From Paecilomyces variotii (taxonomy: Eukaryota), in NCBI GenBank assembly GCA_004022145.1, contig RCNU01000002.1: a DNA stretch of 64,000 nt. One strand, given 5' to 3'. A program made the position numbers and the translations under genes. Under the pieces are notes generated by a model. The model was given only the letters and a program-made list of their open reading frames with translations, searched no databases and was not told where the DNA came from. The stretch's first letter is position 1. Each line of letters begins with the position of its first letter. Positions 5,480-34,531 of the stretch are shown here, one piece after another.

Positions 5480-7486
5480 TTAGTGCTTCTTAATCAGCGT
5501 AAGCTCATCACCAAATCCACTTCCATCACCCTTGACGAACTGCCACGTCGCCTTATTAGCATTATGGAAAGTGAACTTGCTAAATCCATAATCCTCCTGG
5601 TTCAGCACGGCAGTAATATTGAGAGTTTTCTGGCCAGGATCCAAAGTGGAATGACTCTCGATATTACCAGCCATACCATTAATAATATGCGTCAGCGACC
5701 TGCCTGTTCCGGTGTAGTAGGTGCTTTTATTGACGATGCTAGCGGTATCGATGGTTCCATTAGTGCCTAGAGGCAGAAGACGCTCGTACCAATGGATATG
5801 GCCAGCGAGGTAAGCGTCGACTTTATACTTGAGCAGAAGCTCTTCCCAGGCATTACGGACATCGCTTTGGTACGTGGCTGTTTGGGTAGAGTATATGGGT
5901 CGATGGCTCATGACGATGACCCAGGGAGTTTTCTGGCGGTCGATGGAGGCGAGGTCTTTGACGAGCCATTGATATTGCTGGTATGCTTTGTTGTTCTTGT
6001 ATTCGTTATTGTCGATTTTGCCGAATGGACCGGAATCCGTTACGAAGGTTTCGTTTTCCGAGGGGAGAGTATCCTTCCCGTCGACGTCGCGGATGAAAGG
6101 CCATTCAGGGGAATAGGCAAAGTCGGTTTCGGCATCGAGAGCAATAAAATGTGCGAGACCGTAGTCGAAGGAGTACCAGAAGTTGCTGACACCGCCGGTT
6201 TCAGAACCAGGCATGCGGAAGCGGTTGATGTATGCAGTGAAGTTTCTGTGGGGTTTTTTTTTCTTATGCGTTAGTTTTGACTGTTGAGTAAAGTGAGGGG
6301 GAAGGTCTTATGATTATATATATTATATTATTACCTCTGAGAAGGAGGACAGCTGTAGTAAGTGAGAGCCGACTTTGGTGCGGTCGAATTGGCCTTGTCC
6401 TCGTTCATATAGGCCGTTAGTACATTGTTAGGGCCGTCGAATTCTGCGCAGCTGGCTTCATGGTTGCCGGGTAAGACCATGTAGGGAATCTTAGTGGTGA
6501 GGTTGTTCATCCACTGCTGCCATAGATCCCAATTGGACTCATACAACACGCTCATGTCACCACCTCTCGGGCTACCCTGGTTGGGCACTTCGCCTGCCGG
6601 TAGAGGAGTCTTGTAGTCATCCGGGATAGGACCTTCACCAGGCAATGAGGTCGAACTGCCGTTATAGCAGACGGGCCAGTCGGACGCGCAAGGCATGATA
6701 CCGGAGGACCAGTCATCGGCATAACTATAATATATAGGGGTCAGCAGGTGGCGTAAGTTCTAAATAACTGGGATATCTCGCAGCACATGACATTTCGCGA
6801 AATTTCGCGAGTTGTTAATACCTTAAATCACCGCCGTGCCAGGCGAAAGCGAGCTCATCGGACGCCTTGTTGAGCTGCGCGAATGTACCCTGGGCATTGG
6901 TGTATCCCATATCATTGAGCACGGCGATCGAGAAGGCCTTTCCCTCACCGGCCGCACGAGCAGTCTTGAAGCTCAAGGTCTGGGAAGCCGTGGTGCCGTT
7001 GGCAGCGGGGATCTGATAGTAATAGGTCGTGTCCGGCTTGAGGCCCGACAGCTGGACGTCATGGAAGAACTGGCTGCATTGAGTGACCACGACCTCTGAG
7101 CAAGGAGGAGTACGATCGTAAGTCCTGCTGGAGCCCGTGTTGGTGTACAGCAGCCGGTTGGGATGAGTCCCCCAGTGCACCGCGGGGGCTTCCCCGAGTC
7201 CAAAAGGCGTCTGGTAGTGAATATTGACGCCATTGGGCACATACGACAGCGAAATGACATTGACGTTGTTCGATGGCTTCGCCGTCGCGGGCTTGACGGC
7301 CGGCGGCTCTACCAGGCGGACGAAACCCTTTCCATTGCCATTGATGGTGGGATCAACCCAGTCACCCACGGGCACAGCCGGTCCCGTATAGGGATACCGG
7401 GTGTCGACATCGCGATAGTGGTGACGGCCTGGCGCAGCGTTGGCGCAGAGGGCCAGAAGCAACCCTGCGGTAGCCTTGACGAACAT
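5480..7486 (-). CDS. aphA: Secreted purple acid phosphatase-type metallophosphoesterase (AphA-like); exons 7486-6822, 6724-6335, 6245-5480
   Basis: Signal peptide MFVKATAGLLLALCANA. Motifs NDMG, GDLSYADD (rebuilt across intron 1), GNHE, MSHRP, GHIHWYER. Both introns are GT-AG and restore frame. Confidence 0.92.
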
Positions 7487-7618
7487 GATATGAGGGCTTG
7501 AGCGAGAAGGCACGAGAGATGGGAGAGTCGACGACAAGCTGGGCGCCGTTCCCTATTTGAATGAATGTATTAATTATCATTATCTTGCATCATGATCCGT
7601 CTCCTCCTTTAGACAGGC

Positions 7619-23380: not shown

Positions 23381-24196
23381 TTTTTATTTTGGGGGGTTCA
23401 TAATAAGAACCAGAAATCCTGTTGTTTATTGCATCGTCACGAATCCGGGTGATGAACGTTTGCTTTTCTTCAATCTGTCACTGGCGTGTATGCCTGCATT
23501 CCCCTGTAAAGTTAGATAAATAGGCTGAAGGTGATATCACCAAGAATATCAGATACTGGTTGGGATATAATAGTGTCTTGATCTTGCTCAATCCAGTTTG
23601 TTGGATATTGCTAGTTTGTCCTGCGTGTTCGACATTATTAGAGACGATGTGTAGAGATCTCGATGATCATGTTGGAATTGCATGCCTTTCAAAGCCCCTT
23701 TGTTCAGTTGACTGTAGAACTGATAGGAGAGAATGTAGAGTCTGGTTCATGTAAGGAATCCAAAGTTGGCGAAACAGAATAAAACAGCAGAGACACTGTC
23801 CAATTACAATAAAGCCAATATTCCTTAATTAGTTTCTCTTCGACCCTTCTAACTATGAAAGCTTCTGCCATTTCTGACAAATCAGTTGGCTTTTGTTGAG
23901 CTGCATTTGCTATTATTTAACTAACTAGTTAAATATCTAGCATATTATTTTTAACCGCAGCGAACACCAGGTGGCCTGAGCTCCCCGTCGACCTTCCCCG
24001 GACGCCCATGAAACTTTCCGCCCAGTGAAACTCCGAGCCTCGAATCTAAGAATTATCAGATCTTCGAAACACAAAGCTTGAGCACCTTGCGCACCAGCTG
24101 GCTTGAACTTGGAATTTGAGAATCTTCTGAAAGAGTCGTTCCCGACCATGAGTCCAGCAACGGTCGTTCCTTCGCACTGCTAACAATCTACGCGCC

Positions 24197-27100
24197 ATGT
24201 CTGAGTTGGCGGCGTCTGGACCTGTGTCGCTGTCGCGATACCGGCCGGTCCTTTACCTGCTCACCGGCGTCACAGCTGCCTATGCTCTCTTCTACATCCA
24301 TAGCAACTTCATCGCTTCGAATAGCTCGCATACGTCCCTGCGCCGTCGGAATGCTGTCCGGCGCCACCGACGCCATGACTTTGACGAGGAGATCGTGGAC
24401 ACTCCCTCGTTCCGAGCCATCAGCCATCTCGAGCAGCTCGAGCGACAAAACGGAGTATACGGCACGTTCAGGATAGAGACAGAAGATGGAAGGCGCGTGG
24501 AGAGCGGGCTGTTGCCGTCGCTTCTGGCGACCCGCGACCAGTTGATGGAGGAAGTGGGAGTGCCGCCAGCTCATGCGGAACGGATGAGGGAGATGATGGA
24601 GGAGACGTTCTTGGAATCCTTCTTTGCTTTGGATTTTCCACCGTCTCATACAATCCCTCAGGGGAGTACGGAGAGGCATTACTTGATGGACGAGCTGCAG
24701 CGTCGGGGAATTTCGCGGATGGGGATCACGAGAGCTCTGGAACGATATAATGCGGATAGCAACTTCGGGGATGACTTGCGACGTCGTCGACAGAATGGAG
24801 AGAGAGTGACGCTTGCTACGTCGTCTGGAGCTGAGCTTACAGCACCGATGCGCAACCTTGATGGCGGGGAGACGACCATGGACGACCAGAGTGTCTTCTC
24901 CTGGAGGGATGGGAATGACGATTCTTCTCCTACGAGCGAGGGACAAAATCTTCTCAACCTGCTATACCACATCGCAGAGGATCAGGCTAGGAGGGATGGC
25001 TATATTCATAGAGGGGTGACATGCAACAGCTGTGGTGCGATGCCGATTCAAGGTATCAGGTACCGATGCGCCAACTGTATCGATTACGATCTCTGCGAAA
25101 CCTGCGAGGCTATGCAGGTGCACATCAAAACACATCTCTTCTACAAGGTCCGCATCCCTGCGCCTTTCTTGGGCAACCCGCGCCAGTCTCAGCCGGTGTG
25201 GTACCCAGGAAAGCCGATGATGCTGCCTCGCAGTCTCCCACGGCCGCTGGCAAAACGATTGATCAAGGAGACGAACTTCGAGAATACTGAGCTCGACGCA
25301 TTGTGGGATCAGTTCCGCTGCCTGGCCAATGTAGAGTGGTTGGAGGATCCGAATAAATTGTGCATGGCTATTGACCGGAAGACATTTGACCGTTGTTTCG
25401 TTCCTAACACGTCTATCCGCCCGCCTCCTCCAAGTCTCATCTACGACCGCATGTTCGCTTTCTACGATACCAACGGTGATAATCTTATTGGTTTCGAAGA
25501 GTTCTTGAAGGGCCTGGCAAGCTTCAATAACAAGAGTCAGGATGAAAGGATGAAGCGTATATTTAACGGCTACGATATTGACCGAGATGGCTACGTTGAG
25601 CGCAAGGATTTCCTTCGGATGTTCAGAGCGTACTATGCTCTCAGTCGCGAGCTGACTAGAGACATGGTCGCTGGTATGGAAGATGATTTCTTGGAGGGCG
25701 GTGCACGAGACGTCGTCCTCGGGAGCCAACCCATCAGTTCTGCATTCCCGGGTAGTATTCCATCGGGTGAAGCGTCAAGAACGGGAGAAGGAAAACGAAC
25801 AAACCTAGAAGGGGATATGGAAATCATTGACGATCAAGGCGTCTTGCGTCAGGACGGCACTGACACTGGCGATCGAAATGGCATTATCGGGGACGCCGCT
25901 GTCCGTGAACAGTTTGGTCGCGTTCGTCCGGTATTCCCATCGATGGTGCGTCTTTCGAGCTCAGCGGCTCCTCATCAGTCGCCGCCAACTGTGGCTTCTG
26001 CGACAGAAACAGAAGACGAAGGTGACGAAGACGATGATGAGGAGGGAAGCTCGGATGAAGATGGATCGAGTTCTTCCGTCAACAGTGACCAGTGGCCCCC
26101 AGCAGAGCATATTCTAGAGGAAGATATTGTGAGTGCACTGGGTGCATTCGTCCCTATCCAAGAAGTCACGGATCAGGTGGACAGAGCTCGTATCGGAAAC
26201 GCAGTCTATCAAAGAATGCATGATGAAGACCAGAGGCGTGTTGATGAGGCGCGCACCCATGGTATTCATGAGCGCTGGCGGCGAAGAGCGTTCTATACTG
26301 ATGAGGAGGACGGTGCCACACCACCGGAAGGCTATCAGGAGTCCGACTTTGACAGTCTCAGCGACGACGACGATGTCGAAGAGTCTCAACCGGAGTTATC
26401 TTCACGTCTACCGTTTACTCGCTCGAGATCATCATCCAAGGTACGCTTCCAAGATGATCTTGTCGATGATTATGACATCAGGTCAAACCCCTCGACATCG
26501 TCGCGCAGCGTTCCTGTTGGTGAGCGCTGGGGTGGCTTCGAGATCCCAGAAGTAGAGAAAGATGCAGGCAAGGAGATATTGTATCAGGTTACGCAGCAAG
26601 GTCTCAACGAGCTTCTGGATTATCTCTTCAAGGCGAAAGAGGATCTTCTTATGGAAGCACGTCGCACGCGAGCGGAACGAAAGAGATGGGCACGGGAAAT
26701 TGAACTGATTGAGCACATGGATCCGAAGAAACAATTCAACCGAAAGCAAGATCAAGCTGCCGACGAGAATAATGAAGGAGAAGCTCATGATGAGAGGTCG
26801 CTCCAACAACGTATTGCCGAAAAGCCCTTGGATGAATTATTGCAAGTAGCGGGGTATTCGGTAACGCCATCGTCGCCAGAACTCGAAGGCCCTCAGCCTG
26901 TTCTGGCCCCTCCGTCGTCTGAACCTGTTGGGGGTGATGATGATGATGTGCGGCCAGTGCATCTTCGTGCGCCTTCAGACGAGGAGTTGCCTGAGCCTGC
27001 AATCCCTCAACCGTCTCAGCCGGATCCTACTCTGCCCCAAAATCGCCCTGACGGAAGAGATATTGAACAATCCCCCCCTCCACCAGTTACTCCGGACGCC

Positions 27101-27670
27101 TCCATTGGTGGCGACTATTTCCAGCTGGACGATTCTCCACGCGATCCAACACTCCCTCAGTACCGCCCGAACGAGGAGGATGAGCAGCAGCGCCGTCCAC
27201 ATCTCTGCTTCCGTGAGGAGCTGTCTTACGCCTCAGCACCCAGTACAGCTCGAACTTTAGATACTCCCTCCTCATACTCTAGCTTGTCTTCTGCGCAGCC
27301 TCAGCAGCAGTTGCCATTGCGACTCCGGCTGCAGCCCAATGGCACACCTTCGTTGCCAGCACCACGATCTCCCGCCTCATCGTCGGCTGAAGCAGAGGCG
27401 ACAGCTCCTAAGTCAAGTCCCTCTTTCAAGCAGCCTATCCACTCCTCACATACATCCCCGACTATACGGCCTCGACAGCCGCCGCTCCGCACCCCATCTC
27501 CGCAGACTCTCGCGAGGTGGGCCCTCTTGAACCAAGTCGAGCGAGAGGCGAAAGAACGAGGCGGTAGCGGTGCCAAACTTAATTTCGAGGAATTCAGCCG
27601 GAAGATGAACGCTGACCGTGGCCGAAGACTCGGGTTCGTCAGTAGCTGGATTGAGATGGCAAGCTTTTGA
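24197..27670 (+). CDS. ZZ zinc finger + EF-hand protein with N-terminal hydrophobic anchor, 1157 aa, single exon
   Basis: ZZ: HRGVTCNSC...RYRCANCIDYDLCETCE..H...H. EF hands DTNGDNLIGFEE and DIDRDGYVERKD. N-terminal segment VLYLLTGVTAAYALFYI. Confidence 0.9.
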   Translation: MSELAASGPVSLSRYRPVLYLLTGVTAAYALFYIHSNFIASNSSHTSLRRRNAVRRHRRHDFDEEIVDTPSFRAISHLEQLERQNGVYGTFRIETEDGRRVESGLLPSLLATRDQLMEEVGVPPAHAERMREMMEETFLESFFALDFPPSHTIPQGSTERHYLMDELQRRGISRMGITRALERYNADSNFGDDLRRRRQNGERVTLATSSGAELTAPMRNLDGGETTMDDQSVFSWRDGNDDSSPTSEGQNLLNLLYHIAEDQARRDGYIHRGVTCNSCGAMPIQGIRYRCANCIDYDLCETCEAMQVHIKTHLFYKVRIPAPFLGNPRQSQPVWYPGKPMMLPRSLPRPLAKRLIKETNFENTELDALWDQFRCLANVEWLEDPNKLCMAIDRKTFDRCFVPNTSIRPPPPSLIYDRMFAFYDTNGDNLIGFEEFLKGLASFNNKSQDERMKRIFNGYDIDRDGYVERKDFLRMFRAYYALSRELTRDMVAGMEDDFLEGGARDVVLGSQPISSAFPGSIPSGEASRTGEGKRTNLEGDMEIIDDQGVLRQDGTDTGDRNGIIGDAAVREQFGRVRPVFPSMVRLSSSAAPHQSPPTVASATETEDEGDEDDDEEGSSDEDGSSSSVNSDQWPPAEHILEEDIVSALGAFVPIQEVTDQVDRARIGNAVYQRMHDEDQRRVDEARTHGIHERWRRRAFYTDEEDGATPPEGYQESDFDSLSDDDDVEESQPELSSRLPFTRSRSSSKVRFQDDLVDDYDIRSNPSTSSRSVPVGERWGGFEIPEVEKDAGKEILYQVTQQGLNELLDYLFKAKEDLLMEARRTRAERKRWAREIELIEHMDPKKQFNRKQDQAADENNEGEAHDERSLQQRIAEKPLDELLQVAGYSVTPSSPELEGPQPVLAPPSSEPVGGDDDDVRPVHLRAPSDEELPEPAIPQPSQPDPTLPQNRPDGRDIEQSPPPPVTPDASIGGDYFQLDDSPRDPTLPQYRPNEEDEQQRRPHLCFREELSYASAPSTARTLDTPSSYSSLSSAQPQQQLPLRLRLQPNGTPSLPAPRSPASSSAEAEATAPKSSPSFKQPIHSSHTSPTIRPRQPPLRTPSPQTLARWALLNQVEREAKERGGSGAKLNFEEFSRKMNADRGRRLGFVSSWIEMASF

Positions 27671-28259
27671 TTCGAGTTTTATCTTTGTTTTCTTGTTTTC
27701 TTTTTTTCTTTTTTTCGACCTCCTTTTTTCGTTTCGTTGCTGCCCATACTCGATGTTCTGTGCCCTAGTGCATCTCTTTTGCTCATTACTTGCACGGTAT
27801 TAACATCAACCATCCACTCATAGAAAACCTTGGGCAGCGTGCAGCAGGACTTTTCGTTTGCACTGAGGGGAAGAAAGCATTGACACTATCGATGGGCAAT
27901 GGACTAATGAATTCTACGAAAGTGTAATTACTAGGTTAGACCCTAGCTGGCGGATGGGCATTACATTCACCGTGTAAAATAAGAACAGCATTTGCATTAG
28001 CCATGAGTACGCTGGATGCCTCTCCATTCTCGCGATTGGACCTTGAAAACAAAGTTAGGCAAGAAATTTCACAATTGTTCAAGTAATATCGGATATGAGC
28101 CGACAACGATCAGATTTAGAATATGACATAATTCCCAACTTCCTATAACCAAAACAGTTCTATCTATTACTGGGAGAGTATTGTACATGTATGTATGCAT
28201 TTATACCTAAACGCCTCAAGGAAAAAGGAAAAAAAAAAAATAAAAAAGGAATCTCCATC

Positions 28260-30488
28260 TTACAATTCAATTTCCTCACCCTCCTCTGTCGTCGTGACGG
28301 GTTTGTACGCGACATCGTCTTTAGTCTTGGGACGGCGTTTTCGGAGCATGAACCAGAATATCGCACCGCATGCTAGTGCAATGAAGCAGAAGTAGAAGAT
28401 GAAAGCGGTTATTTTAAAGGGGCTGGATCTGTTTTTGTGATTGTGAAATAGTTAGTATAGTCAGTTAGTGTGTGGGTACTTGATGCGTGCGTGCATGGGG
28501 TGATTTGGAGGGGGGGGGGATGAATAGATAGATTAAAATAAATTGAGATATTGACGTGGGAGAGCTGTCTTACTTTGTATTATGTTCTGTGGAAGATTCT
28601 TGCTCTGTCGGAGAGGTTTGTTCTTCTTCTGTGTGTTTCTCATCTGAGGGACCCCAGTTCGTATCATTTTTGCTGGTGAATGGGATCTGGACTGGAGAGC
28701 ATGCCTTGAGGTGGTCAGATGGGATAGATGACATTGGTGTCCGCTCCTGGAGTGTAAGAGGGTCTTCCACCATAGTGGCGATAAGTCCTGCATGGGCGTG
28801 CCATTCCATGTGGCAGTGGAATATCCATACTCCTGATTAGTTATAGTTCCAAGGTTAGTTACAGATTGTCTGGCTGGGAGATGTACGTTGACAGAAGGTG
28901 GTGACGCACCAGGATTATTAGCTCGAAACCGGACGACGATGCTTCCTCCTGGATTCACGACGAGTGTATCACGTCGGATGGGGGCTTGAGGGAGATCATT
29001 CTCGGTTAAGCCTTTATCTTTGAATAGACCATCGCCGCGCTTTGATTGGAACACAGCTTGGAAGTGGTGGCCGTGCAAGTGGAATGGGTGTCGGCCCATG
29101 TGTTCGTTGTTAACGATTAGTTCGACGATGGAGTCCTTTTCAAGGACGAATGAATTGGTCGATGCGGCATAGGTGGTCTCATTTGCGGCATCTGTACCGC
29201 TCGTAAGGGCTGTATATAGAGTTGGCACCTCGGGAGGCGAGTAGCTAACGTCGTTGAGGAGCCAGCTGGAAAAGAAGAACGTTGTTAGTGAAGTAGAATG
29301 CGCAGTTAGAATGGGGGGCAGATACTCACTGCGTAATTCCATCCAGATCCCTGTCCATGTTCATAGTAAGGGTGATTGTACGATCTGGATGGGCCAACAA
29401 CGGTTGTTCGTCATACGGCACGAGTGCCATATCGTCTATACTGTCATACCTGGACAGCTGCTGTGGTTCCGGGTATGATAGGCTCGAGTCATATACAAGC
29501 CACCCTGTCGTTGACATGCTGAAATGTCCATGGCCCATTCTCGAGTTCTGCATATACCTGTTAGCGAAAGTCGTTGGGTGGAATAGAGTTGTAAAGCGTA
29601 CTGGATCCAAACTCGCGACGATGGGATAGTTCGCTGCCCGATCATCCTTGGTCTTCAGTAGGAAACTACATCTCTGGCCAGTAGCGAGGTAGATGGTTTC
29701 AGCGACAGTCGGCTTCGTGTAGACTCCATCCAGTTCCACAATGGTCATGTTGTGACCTTCCATCCAGAAATACTGGCCCATGAACGCTCCTATGTTAATC
29801 ATCCGGACGAGATACGTCTTTCCTGGCTGTACCCCGATTTTAAGATTCTGGGTCTCGTTGATCAAGTTCGATTGAGGCAGAGGTTCCTGCAACATCATGT
29901 TCCCCTTGGCCATGTACGTTGGAAGGAGAGCGGACATTTGATCGTGATACCAGTCTGATAAAGGCAAGATCAGTTCTTCCTCATACTCACCCTTGAAAGG
30001 TGAGGCGTCATCGTATATGATCAACGGACCCCGCAATCCGTCAGGATATTGCGATTGAGTGTGAGAATGATACCAGTATGTACCTGGTTGATCCACCTGT
30101 TTACAGAAAATCTCGTTATTTCGGTCATCTCGTACAGCCTGCGACAGGCACACCATACCGTAAAGTTATACTGGAAGCTGGATCCTGGTGGAATACCGCA
30201 CTGGGTGACCTGAGCTGGTCCATCCATATGAGAGGCATTCTTCATGAAAAGGCCGTGGAAATGAAGGGATGTCGATTGGTTCCCTAATCCATTCAAGACA
30301 TTGACGATAATGCGATCCCCAACATTGGCCGTAATCGCGGGCAATGGCCACTGGCCATTGATGCCAATGGTTGGTCTTACGTGCGCACCATCTGGATTCG
30401 AAGACACCCAAGTGATATTGAAATCGTAAGTGACCGTAGCGCATATCGCGCTCGGAAGAAGCGCCAGCAGGGCGCACAGGAAGATCAT
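28260..30488 (-). CDS. Fet3-like multicopper oxidase with C-terminal TM anchor; exons ~30488-30159, ~30096-29602, 29547-29330, 29265-28910, 28832-28574, 28428-28260
   Basis: Signal peptide and all four Cu-binding motifs: [35 protein letters not shown]. The last exon, not annotated in the ORF track, reads [34 protein letters not shown]...EEIEL*. Confidence 0.92.
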
Positions 30489-32293
30489 CAGGGGCGGCGA
30501 TGCCACGGTGTAAATAAATACCTGGAAAGCACCGCTAGGGCCATTGCAGGATCCTGGGAACATTTGACCCCAGGATAAATGGCCAGCAACGCAGTGATTT
30601 AATAGCAATGATACATTCTTCTTTTGTTCTTGCTGTCAGCCGTCAGTTTGTTTTTAGCTTTCCGGGCCCCCGATCCCTAGATTTGCCGCTAAAAAACTGT
30701 CCGAGATCAACTAAATGTCTCCGGGGCTCTGAGATGCGAAACAATTCAACCTTCTGCCATTCGTTCGCAACAAGGAAGCTTACGGTTACAGGCTGGCCGG
30801 TGCGTCCTAGCATTGGCAAATAATGGCTCAATAATCGTTTCATCACCCACCAACTTCAAGAACTCAGAGTGTCATCGTTCCTTGGAGCTGTTTGACGTGA
30901 ACTGTCACCCCATACCGGATATGTAAAGCCGGGTCGTCCTTTACTGTAATAACTAGTGGACCATTGCAAACCGCTCATGGAACTAATATTAACAGCTATT
31001 CCGTTGAGTCGAATCAACATGTTCATCTCTTCCATCGCGAAATGAAATGGTCCTAGCCATTATCTGGCATTTGCCATTGATGAGCGCTAAACTTCTGAAC
31101 GCATCGGCTGGGGACAATCTCAATGGCCCAAGATCAGCGACGTTACCTTGAATCAGCGATAGGTTTCTACGAAACTACTATCAGTTACGCCTCATCGATC
31201 AGAAAATAGCTGGCAGTGATGGAATTTCTCATATTCGAGGTAGATTATCCACTCGACCCCAGAACTGACGTTAGTCCATACTGACGAGAACAGCTGATTA
31301 CCGATGACAGCCTAGGCTGTCATCGATAGAGGATATGTATAAACCATCTTGTGGACATGCCGGATGGTTTCGATAAGTTGGGATACGATGGCCGTTTGAA
31401 GACCGCCATGTTGCTGTACGTAACCCACTTGTGTCGCTATTCTTTCCATTCCTAAGCTCATAGAGTCAGTATCTGTCGACTCGAAATGGTTTCCATGTCC
31501 CACGACGGTTCATCCGCAACATCGTCAGTTGGGACAGATCCAGATTTAGGGTCATGTCTGTCGCAACAAGTCGATTTCACGATATTTACCTGCTAGCCTA
31601 GGTCGGCAGGTTTGTGGAAGCCGGGAGTCAACATCCATGATCCAGTGCCTTACCACATTCCATCGACTAGTCTGCCTAGCAACTCGGTATTCCCTTTTCA
31701 TCAAGCGATGACGCCCTCGTAAGGAGATACTTAATCAGTGGAATTCCCTTTGTGTTGATCTAGCGTCAATCCAACTGGGAGATGCTGCAGAGTCATTTCA
31801 CAGATCCGTGACAGTTATTTTGTTTCTGGCCATACGTCTTTTTGCCATGGGCGAAGACAATATCGAAGCACAGCAGCTACATATCATTGAACTGAATATG
31901 CTCTGCTAATCTACAGTCGACACATATTGCGGTCTGTAACCGGGAGCCTTGATATGGTCTCTAGTTGTGGCTGCACGACGGAGTTCTCCTGGTCCAGCGA
32001 GGTGGTTTTTGATACAGCTGCGTTGGCGTTTGACAGTGGCTCGGTGGTCTTGAATGCCTTCGATACGATTCTAACAGAGCTGACCACAGTAGATGTTTGA
32101 CAAGACATCAAATATATATATATAAGGACCGGGGTTCGGTGTCATAAGATTCTGTTTCATATTGAGTGGTGATAATATCGGACAAGTACCTCGGCTTTTC
32201 GGCTTTTCAATCACCTAATAAAAGTTATTAACTATTGGCTATCTAAGTAAATTTGGGAATTGTACAGGGACTGGAATGACTTGGTCTTAGTCC

Positions 32294-33365: not shown

Positions 33366-34531
33366 ATGATTCCTTCTGTTTTCCTTATCTGCCTTCTCGG
33401 ATCAGCTGGTCTCATCGAGGGGGCAGCCCTGAGTCCTTACTCGCAGAAATACAGTACCCCCCTCGAAAGACGCGCCGATTCAACCTGTCTGGCGAATAAC
33501 GCAATTCAAACGGCCAGTAGTTCAACAGGACAGGAGCCTGGTTCAGATGGACTTCAGGCTGGACAGGCGAAATCTGCAACGTAAGTTCTTCGCTACCATA
33601 TCATATACAATAGAGGAACAGCCATGGACATGGTAGTTGACAACTGAACGGATTTAGTGACGACGCAAATTTCATTAATTTCTGTTCAGGGCAGACTTTG
33701 ACCAACGGTCAGCAAAAGAAGGGCGGATCCTGCAACGGCATCGTCATGGGAAAGATCCCTTCCAGCAACAATATGATCTCTGCCATGATCACGAATCCTC
33801 AACCGGGAGACAAGATCACCGCAGGGAACACATTCACCATCTCTGTACAAACCACGAATCTCAAAGCCGGTTCCTTCACCAATGCGCAGTCAACATACTA
33901 TTCTGCTCCACAGGACCTGGATAGTAGTGGCAATATCATTGGTCATTGCCATGTCACCGTACAGGAAATCGGGAGCCTTACAAGCACCACACCACCGGAT
34001 CCATCCACGTTCGCCTTCTTTAAGGGTATCAACGACGATGGAAATGGCAAGGGCCTGTTGTCCGCCACAGTCACAGGCGGTCTACCAGCTGGAGTCTACC
34101 GTGTCTGCACAATGATCTCTTCCTCCAATCATCAGCCCGTTCTCATGCCTGTCGCTCAACGTGGTGCTCAGGATGATTGTACCAAGTTCGAGGTTGTCTC
34201 TAGCAGCAGCAGCAGCGGCAGCAACGGCAGCAATACCAACAACAGTAACAACTCTAATACGAGCAACGGTAGCAGTAGCTCCAGCACGAATTCAAAAGTG
34301 ACAGTCCAGTCCGGCTCTCTTGGTGGGGCTCCTCCTACGATACAGGATTCGGGGAATCCCTCCAGACCATTCTCTGTCAACGGGAACACCTTCGTGAACT
34401 CGGCTGCAGCCGTCCAACGGGCTTGTGATATCCAATTTAATCAGTGTGCAGACGCTGCCAACGCCGGAAAACTAGGAGGCAAAACCGTTAATGATTGCCA
34501 GATTCAGAAGAATGGCTGTAAAGCAGCATAG
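33366..34531 (+). CDS. Secreted Cys-containing protein of an uncharacterised fungal family; exons 33366-33580, 33658-34531
   Basis: Signal peptide, possible Kex2 site (ERR), core NFINFC..LTNGQQ..GSCNGIVMG...GHCHVTVQ...PVAQRGAQDDC, Ser/Asn linker, C-terminal 4-Cys module. Confidence 0.85.

Follow-up and report, generated by a model that had tools for sequence, protein, structure and literature searches.

A Fet3-type multicopper oxidase of Paecilomyces variotii with a His/Met-rebuilt iron pocket: a candidate cell-surface cuprous oxidase from a fungal clade

Gene structure and splicing

The window analysed here, 64,000 nucleotides of the Paecilomyces variotii contig RCNU01000002.1 (assembly GCA_004022145.1), carries on its minus strand a multicopper oxidase gene of six exons, five GT-AG introns and 608 codons (Table 1). 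The 608-aa protein has a predicted signal peptide, eight predicted N-glycosylation sequons and a single predicted C-terminal hydrophobic helix, and it is found letter for letter inside P0001, a P. variotii AA1 protein with 25 more N-terminal residues. The linker encoded by exon 5 is acidic and rich in Ser and Thr, and stands in place of the conserved juxtamembrane motif of Fet3.

Table 1. Positions in the window of the His/Met oxidase gene, its pocket residues and adjacent features
Feature	Position	Strand	Content
Exon 1	30159..30488	-	signal peptide (about aa 1-17), domain 1, T2/T3 His76 and His78
Exon 2	29602..30096	-	His120/His122, Met177-Met178, Glu181, Asp274
Exon 3	29330..29547	-	rebuilt D283 loop, Met337, Met339, first two bases of His348
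Exon 4	28910..29265	-	His403-Met404, T1 His407, His410, His412
Exon 5	28574..28832	-	His472-Cys473-His474, Met475, T1 His478, axial Leu483, then linker
Exon 6	28260..28428	-	one transmembrane helix (about aa 557-580), basic stop-transfer stretch, short cytosolic tail
Intron 2	29548..29601	-	54 nt, in frame, stop-free; removed in RNA contigs
Intron 3	29266..29329	-	interrupts the His348 (=Y354) codon
Alternative intron	28042..28263	-	begins within the final codon; deletes the stop codon, adds 34 C-terminal residues
Met177-Met178	29898-29893	-	aligned to Fet3 P181/T182
Glu181	29886	-	Fet3 E185
Asp274	29607	-	Fet3 D278
Met279	29538	-	Fet3 D283
Met339	29358	-	Fet3 M345
His403-Met404	29102-29097	-	Fet3 D409-T410
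Transcript leader	30489-30945	-	at least 410 nt, eight upstream ATGs
In-frame upstream ATG	30563	-	would add 25 aa; occurs in P0002 too
Next gene upstream	33641-34531	+	2.7 kb off; Cys-containing, Ser/Asn-rich secreted-type ORF, no Pfam match
Convergent ZZ/EF-hand gene	24152-27670	+	
Stretch spanned by RNA contigs	27900-28260		between the two convergent genes
Metallophosphoesterase gene	5480-7552	-	several exons; purple acid phosphatase-like by inspection

Because intron 2 is in frame and free of stop codons, and because the P. variotii database model P0172 splices it differently from the RNA contigs and loses the His loop, splicing was checked in RNA, the evidence being assembled contigs, which carry no expression level. 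All five splice joints are exact in the contigs of runs X1 and X3, which come from two studies and are two of the four runs examined; the contigs of runs X2 and X6 contain no splice joints of the gene. Introns 2 and 3 are spliced as modelled in the RNA contigs, ruling out intron retention or mis-splicing as the source of the His loop, and the intact ligands, the spliced RNA and the conserved orthologues together rule out a pseudogene. A single contig, from run X3, shows the alternative intron, which agrees with database models of 666 aa. One of the eight ATGs in the transcript leader is in frame, and translational control through these upstream ATGs is possible. At the other end of the gene, its 3' end and that of the convergent ZZ/EF-hand gene appear to overlap.

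Genome context and upstream region

The neighbourhood was surveyed through the window ORFs of at least 130 aa, six neighbours being scanned by Pfam; the genes around the oxidase encode a ZZ/EF-hand protein, a secreted-type protein, and MAPEG, P450, MFS and WD40 proteins. The gene sits among core genes, and near-identical copies of it occur in many assemblies. No copper transporter or reductase adjoins it, none of the four Ctr loci found in the genome lies within the window, and no pigment-cluster gene was recognised among the window ORFs of at least 130 aa. It also has no permease neighbour. The only FTR1 gene found lies on another contig, where it adjoins, in divergent orientation, a canonical FetC gene (G000:C23:1985307-1986893) that retains all four iron residues and whose product is 47% identical to the His/Met protein. 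This separate FetC-FTR1 pair rules out that the His/Met gene is the FetC of the genome. Three further long multicopper oxidase matches in the genome are 27-34% identical to FetC and to the His/Met protein, and the remainder are short exon pieces; no Abr1-like gene is present among the scored multicopper oxidase candidates, whose counts are lower bounds.

The 2782 bases upstream of the gene were scanned for Mac1, SreA and Ace1 motifs. They contain no Mac1 box and no full SreA box, and the four Ace1-like sites, against 3.0 expected, are at chance level. The region upstream of FetC contains one full SreA-type box.

Copper ligands and the rebuilt pocket

The Pfam families PF07732, PF00394 and PF07731 all exceed the cut-off, identifying a three-domain multicopper oxidase (AA1) built of three cupredoxin domains. 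Residues were mapped by HMMER alignment to yeast Fet3 (PDB 1ZPU), for which the chain index plus 21 gives the Fet3 number. The copper ligands are complete, with all ten His and the Cys, the T1 ligands being His407, Cys473 and His478 and the axial residue Leu483 (=L494), and the alignment runs along Fet3 with no insert.

The Fe(II) pocket of Fet3 is formed by E185, D283 and D409, Y354 being less critical, according to the accessible text of PMC3129051 and PMC11817551. Of these Fet3-class residues, E185 is retained as Glu181, and D283, D409 and Y354 are replaced by Met279, His403 and His348, respectively. Asp274 and Met339 retain D278 and M345. The rebuilt D283 loop contains His281, His283 and Met286 in addition to Met279, and His403-Met404 replace D409-T410 in a gap-free alignment, four residues ahead of the T1 His. 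Met178 replaces T182, and Met475 replaces I486. Since the residue at the I486 position touches T1 in laccases, Met475 may serve to set the T1 potential and not to hold substrate.

These alignments bear out what the original prediction had read by eye against the Fet3 sequence: intact T1/T2/T3 ligands, colinearity with Fet3, a kept E185, a rebuilt D283 loop, a Tyr-to-His change at Y354 in a codon split by an intron, and a change of D409-T410 to His-Met; the splicing that it had asked to see in RNA is exact at all five joints. It had named retention of the acidic ligands as one of the points that would speak against it; D283 and D409 are lost, and E185, together with D278, is kept.

An AlphaFold model of P0001, built from a 119-row alignment, has a mean pLDDT of 88.6, its confidence within the core being lowest in both rebuilt loops (blocks at 70 and 82). 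The model superposes on 1ZPU with Z 53.8 and an rmsd of 1.5 Å over 507 residues, the runner-up being a laccase with Z 45.6. In agreement with this, Foldseek ranks 1ZPU at the top too; the ESM Atlas gave generic Fet3/laccase clusters only. 1ZPU is also the best match by sequence (565 bits against 338), so that the protein groups with ferroxidases and not with laccases sensu stricto. By positional equivalence to 1ZPU, the pocket residues would lie beside T1.

A His/Met clade among fungi

His-Met at Fet3 positions 409-410 was found in 7 of 120 matches in a first search and in 12 of 163 after a second, and a third search added seven further members. Among 150 representatives at 50% identity, the motif is readable in 121, 80 of which have Asp and 16 His, seven of the latter being His-Met. 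Members with names belong to P. variotii, P. lecythidis, Aspergillus clavatus and several species of section Nigri, and to Exophiala, Rhinocladiella, Fonsecaea, Cladophialophora and Knufia, so that the distribution includes Eurotiales and Chaetothyriales. No second P. variotii member of the clade is present among the matches listed.

The pocket was compared between 26 rows of the His-Met clade and 160 canonical rows, mainly from Sordariomycetes. The presence of the His403-Met404 pair in 26/26 clade rows is circular, because the pair was used to define the set. At the other positions, Met replaces T182 in 24/26 clade rows and in none of the 160 canonical rows, and Met replaces I486 with the same frequencies (24/26 against 0/160). 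His at Y354 is found in 19/26 clade rows and in 0/160 canonical rows; the seven clade rows lacking it, all from black yeasts, have Met-x-His at 339-341 in the same hairpin, as though to make up for a ligand, and a His somewhere in this hairpin is thus present in 26/26 clade rows against 4/160 canonical rows. With gap rows dropped, Asp five residues past D278 is found in 0/25 clade rows and 157/157 canonical rows, and at least one Met or His lies in the D283 loop in 21/25 clade rows against 10/160 canonical rows. Met178 and Met475 are clade-wide, and the loop wording MGHGH is confined to Paecilomyces. At the E185 position, 14 of the 26 clade rows carry Glu and 11 carry Asp, and D278 is kept in 24/26. 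M345 is kept in 23/26 clade rows, having been lost in three section-Nigri rows, and in 160/160 canonical rows, and so it has no discriminating value. The juxtamembrane motif GNA[AG][GA]N, for which we infer a tie to Ftr1 pairing, is found in 146/160 canonical rows and in 0/26 clade rows, some of which lack the C-terminus; a C-terminal membrane anchor is present in at least 14/26 clade rows.

Outside the five pocket segments, the share of Met plus His is 6.62% in the 23 fuller clade rows and 6.71% in the 160 canonical rows. This equality rules out compositional drift; the enrichment of His and Met in the five pocket segments is more than chance.

A pattern scan of metagenomes gave seven loci, three of which (L015-L017) are members of the clade and four of which belong to a distant lineage. 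L015 lacks Met178, and no metal transporter was found among the five adjacent ORFs scanned at the metagenome clade loci. The distant Fet3-like lineage, near P0232 (L018:531-2152, L021:7581-9310, L019 and L020), has His-Met before the T1 His as an independent gain, together with an axial Met and no E185. Two individual entries deserve comment. In P0193, an Aspergillus germanicus protein within the clade, both the His-Met pair and the His-Cys-His ligands have disappeared, and the protein is probably degenerate; P0185, labelled Aureobasidium melanogenum, is near-identical to the Exophiala dermatitidis protein, and contamination or mislabelling is possible.

No account of the pocket or of the clade turned up in the full-text literature searched, which takes in few subscription journals. 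Its members are in print as list entries only in the accessible parts of PMC5302831 and PMC4059230, and the accessible parts of PMC11708227 and PMC8425704 contain nothing specific to the clade. For A. niger, the ferroxidase-type genes given in the available text of PMC3200161 are the FtrA/B-linked McoH and McoK, plus BrnA.

Phylogeny and origin

In a tree of 102 rows built from all columns, the clade, including the degenerate P0193, has an SH-aLRT support of 100. When the pocket columns were removed, a quick tree of 106 rows left the clade unresolved, and a careful tree of 57 rows, without the fragment P0292 and without most distant outgroups, recovered it as monophyletic (100/98). The careful tree thus argues against convergence instead of one clade. 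In this tree the sister group is a Sordariomycete/Leotiomycete clade with the acidic site (99/96), and the clade and its sister are joined with 100/99. The Abr1-named proteins P0197 and P0242 fall outside the clade-plus-sister group with support of 98-99 in the two large trees, whose rows do not include A. fumigatus Abr1 itself.

CHGG_08215 (P0095), which stands outside the trees, shares 67-80% identity with 20 rows of the sister clade. Since CHGG_08215 is clustered with ftr1, as stated in the accessible text of PMC3129052, the ancestor of the clade was probably a true iron-uptake ferroxidase.

Proposed function and alternatives

Neofunctionalisation of the gene is well founded, because the gene no longer encodes the acidic Fe(II) site, the change is inherited and kept in a clade, and the gene is an Ftr1 orphan in a genome with a canonical FetC-FTR1 pair elsewhere. 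The original prediction of a neofunctionalised surface oxidase for Cu(I) or another soft metal holds to this extent, Cu(I) as the substrate being only the best single guess. The phylogeny that it had proposed with FetC, Fet3 and Abr1 gives the protein a clade of its own with a Fet3 sister, and, as to its second option, a laccase-like enzyme, the protein groups with Fet3 and not with laccases.

We give an even chance to the reading that the protein is a cell-surface cuprous oxidase that works like CueO without belonging to the CueO family. The ancestor would be an Ftr1-linked Fet3 ferroxidase. Its three-domain descendant would have been released from iron uptake, with a substrate site by T1 made of the soft ligands His403, Met404, Met339 and Met178, a His of the hairpin (position 348, in black yeasts 341) and the variable Met and His of the old D283 loop. 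Extracellular Cu(I) would bind in this pocket, an electron would pass to T1 via the retained Glu181 and the His403-His407 side, four electrons would reduce O2 to water at the trinuclear centre, and Cu(II) would be let go. The outcome may be lower Cu(I) toxicity or a tuned copper redox state at the membrane. Such a site would resemble the Cu5 site of CueO, and the minor cuprous oxidase activity of Fet3 would have become the dominant one. Fet3 itself oxidises Cu(I), an activity that accompanies its role in iron uptake, and M345 is reportedly its Cu(I)-specific residue. If the pocket was rebuilt in a conserved clade, the clade would be a natural experiment on the switch of one scaffold from Fe(II) to Cu(I).

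Several observations speak against a cuprous oxidase. His and Met at the pocket are not diagnostic of Cu(I), because Abr1, a pigment-synthesis enzyme of a separate clade, has a parallel His/Met pocket. M345 does not discriminate and is lost in the three section-Nigri rows, and Met178 is missing from L015. The gene has no copper transporter or reductase beside it and copper-response boxes at chance level, and the persistence of E185 and D278 leaves room for Fe(II).

Expression data from E. dermatitidis bear on several readings. HMPREF1120_00173, presumably EHY51950, is a probable orthologue of the P. variotii gene. In the available text of PMC6037837, it is up 2.55-fold, only in the melanin-less PKS1 mutant and together with the Ctr and Atx1 genes, and the Ftr1/Fet3 pair is up 23-64-fold in the two experiments reporting both genes; HMPREF1120_00173 is also absent from the FtrA-linked pairs in the accessible part of PMC4059230. 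These data set the probable orthologue apart from iron uptake and hint at copper shortage, not excess, which counts against a detoxifying cuprous oxidase.

An Abr1-like oxidase for organic substrates, namely DHN-melanin or other pigment intermediates or phenols, whose His/Met pocket binds an aromatic or holds a relay copper like CueO Cu5, is the best of the alternatives and is possible, although rather doubtful. Abr1 keeps only E185 and has parallel His/Met changes, the P. variotii genome shows no Abr1-like gene among its scored multicopper oxidase candidates, melanised fungi are abundant in the clade, and phenol oxidase activity is regained with Cu(II) at CueO Cu5. However, the clade stands apart from Abr1 in both large trees, the window ORFs of at least 130 aa include no recognised pigment-cluster gene, at least 14/26 clade rows have a membrane anchor, a feature that descriptions of the Abr1 type lack, and the clade has kept M345 and gained M410 and M182, all three of which are missing from Abr1.

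A ferroxidase uncoupled from Ftr1, in which Fe(II) is detoxified or precipitated at a mixed Glu/Asp/His site, seems improbable. The retained carboxylates at the E185 position (14 Glu and 11 Asp among 26 rows) and at D278 (24/26) would suit it, and the iron site of ceruloplasmin includes His; CueOs, moreover, oxidise Fe(II) as well. However, two of the three decisive carboxylates are gone in all rows, the near-invariant gain of Met is unexpected for Fe(II), the 23-64-fold rise of Ftr1/Fet3 was not shared by the probable Exophiala orthologue, and an SreA-type box is absent upstream of the gene and present at the FetC promoter.

An oxidase for another metal such as Mn(II), a protein that binds Ag(I) or similar soft ions, or one that acquires or relays copper for laccases rather than for detoxification is at least as improbable, being favoured by the co-rise with Ctr and Atx1 in the melanin-less Exophiala mutant, the locus mapping of which is inferred, and by the degenerate P0193 and the patchy distribution, which suggest a dispensable niche role, and disfavoured by thioethers being poor Mn(II) ligands and by the absence of a Mac1-type box upstream.

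Comparison with known systems

With yeast Fet3p (1ZPU) and FetC, the P. variotii protein shares the fold, the copper ligands, the axial Leu, E185, D278, M345, the signal peptide and the C-terminal transmembrane helix. It differs from them in that D283, Y354, D409, T410, T182 and I486 have become Met or His and in that the juxtamembrane motif and the adjacent permease are absent. By its defining residues and its linkage, the His/Met gene is outside the iron-uptake Fet3 class. Annotations of clade members from black yeasts and aspergilli read 'fetC', 'Fet3' or Abr1 homologue, and inventories of iron-uptake genes may therefore miscount the clade.

The Abr1/brown-1/BrnA/ChMCO1 type is likewise derived from Fet3, free of a permease and left with E185 alone of the four iron residues, as described for Abr1 in the accessible text of PMC3129051. 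The cluster of P0197 is named Abr1/brown 1 and fits this published description, and after its identification the trees ruled out that the P. variotii gene is Abr1. In parallel to the His/Met clade, the Abr1-type proteins P0197, P0362 and P0242 carry His at Fet3 182 and 408-409, and their D283 loop contains Met-Met. Unlike the P. variotii protein, Abr1 lacks M345, M410 and the hairpin His (it has Arg at 354), and the P. variotii gene has a transmembrane helix and no recognised pigment cluster around it, whereas the Abr1 type is described without the helix. The parallel bears on the chemistry of that pigment enzyme too. On a bolder and unlikely view, a dedicated fungal counterpart of CueO arose repeatedly through conversion of the iron pocket of Fet3 to a His/Met site for Cu(I): in this clade, again in Abr1/brown-1 and, in part, in L018-L021. 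The role of Abr1 would in that case be copper redox chemistry in the service of melanin laccases, and not pigment oxidation itself.

In P. variotii, copper resistance is conferred by the copper-induced multicopper oxidase McoA of the HEPHAESTUS Starship; the available text of bioRxiv 2020.03.06.981548 presents McoA as the first enzyme of its kind to give copper resistance in a filamentous fungus. Compared by description, McoA lies on a mobile element in some strains, whereas the His/Met gene sits among core genes.

The prokaryotic enzymes CueO, McoP and McoA have a Met/carboxylate site at T1, and a similar site is proposed for the P. variotii protein. The Cu5 of CueO is bound by M355, M441, D439 and D360, and the effect of Cu(II) at this site on phenol oxidation and the oxidation of Fe(II) by CueOs, mentioned above, come from the accessible text of the same source (PMC12041951). 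Prokaryotic metallo-oxidases are marked by Met-rich segments near T1, and McoP has a flexible loop segment near T1 with the wording MGHG, according to the available part of PMC11111587; the P. variotii loop has the same four letters, a likeness at the level of wording. CueO and these metallo-oxidases are about 18-21% identical to the P. variotii protein on structural alignment. The long Met-rich insert of CueO over T1 is absent from the P. variotii protein, which is colinear with Fet3, is membrane-anchored and has His where CueO has Asp before the T1 His. The candidate Cu(I) ligands of the P. variotii protein occupy pocket positions of Fet3, and any likeness to the prokaryotic metallo-oxidases is convergent.
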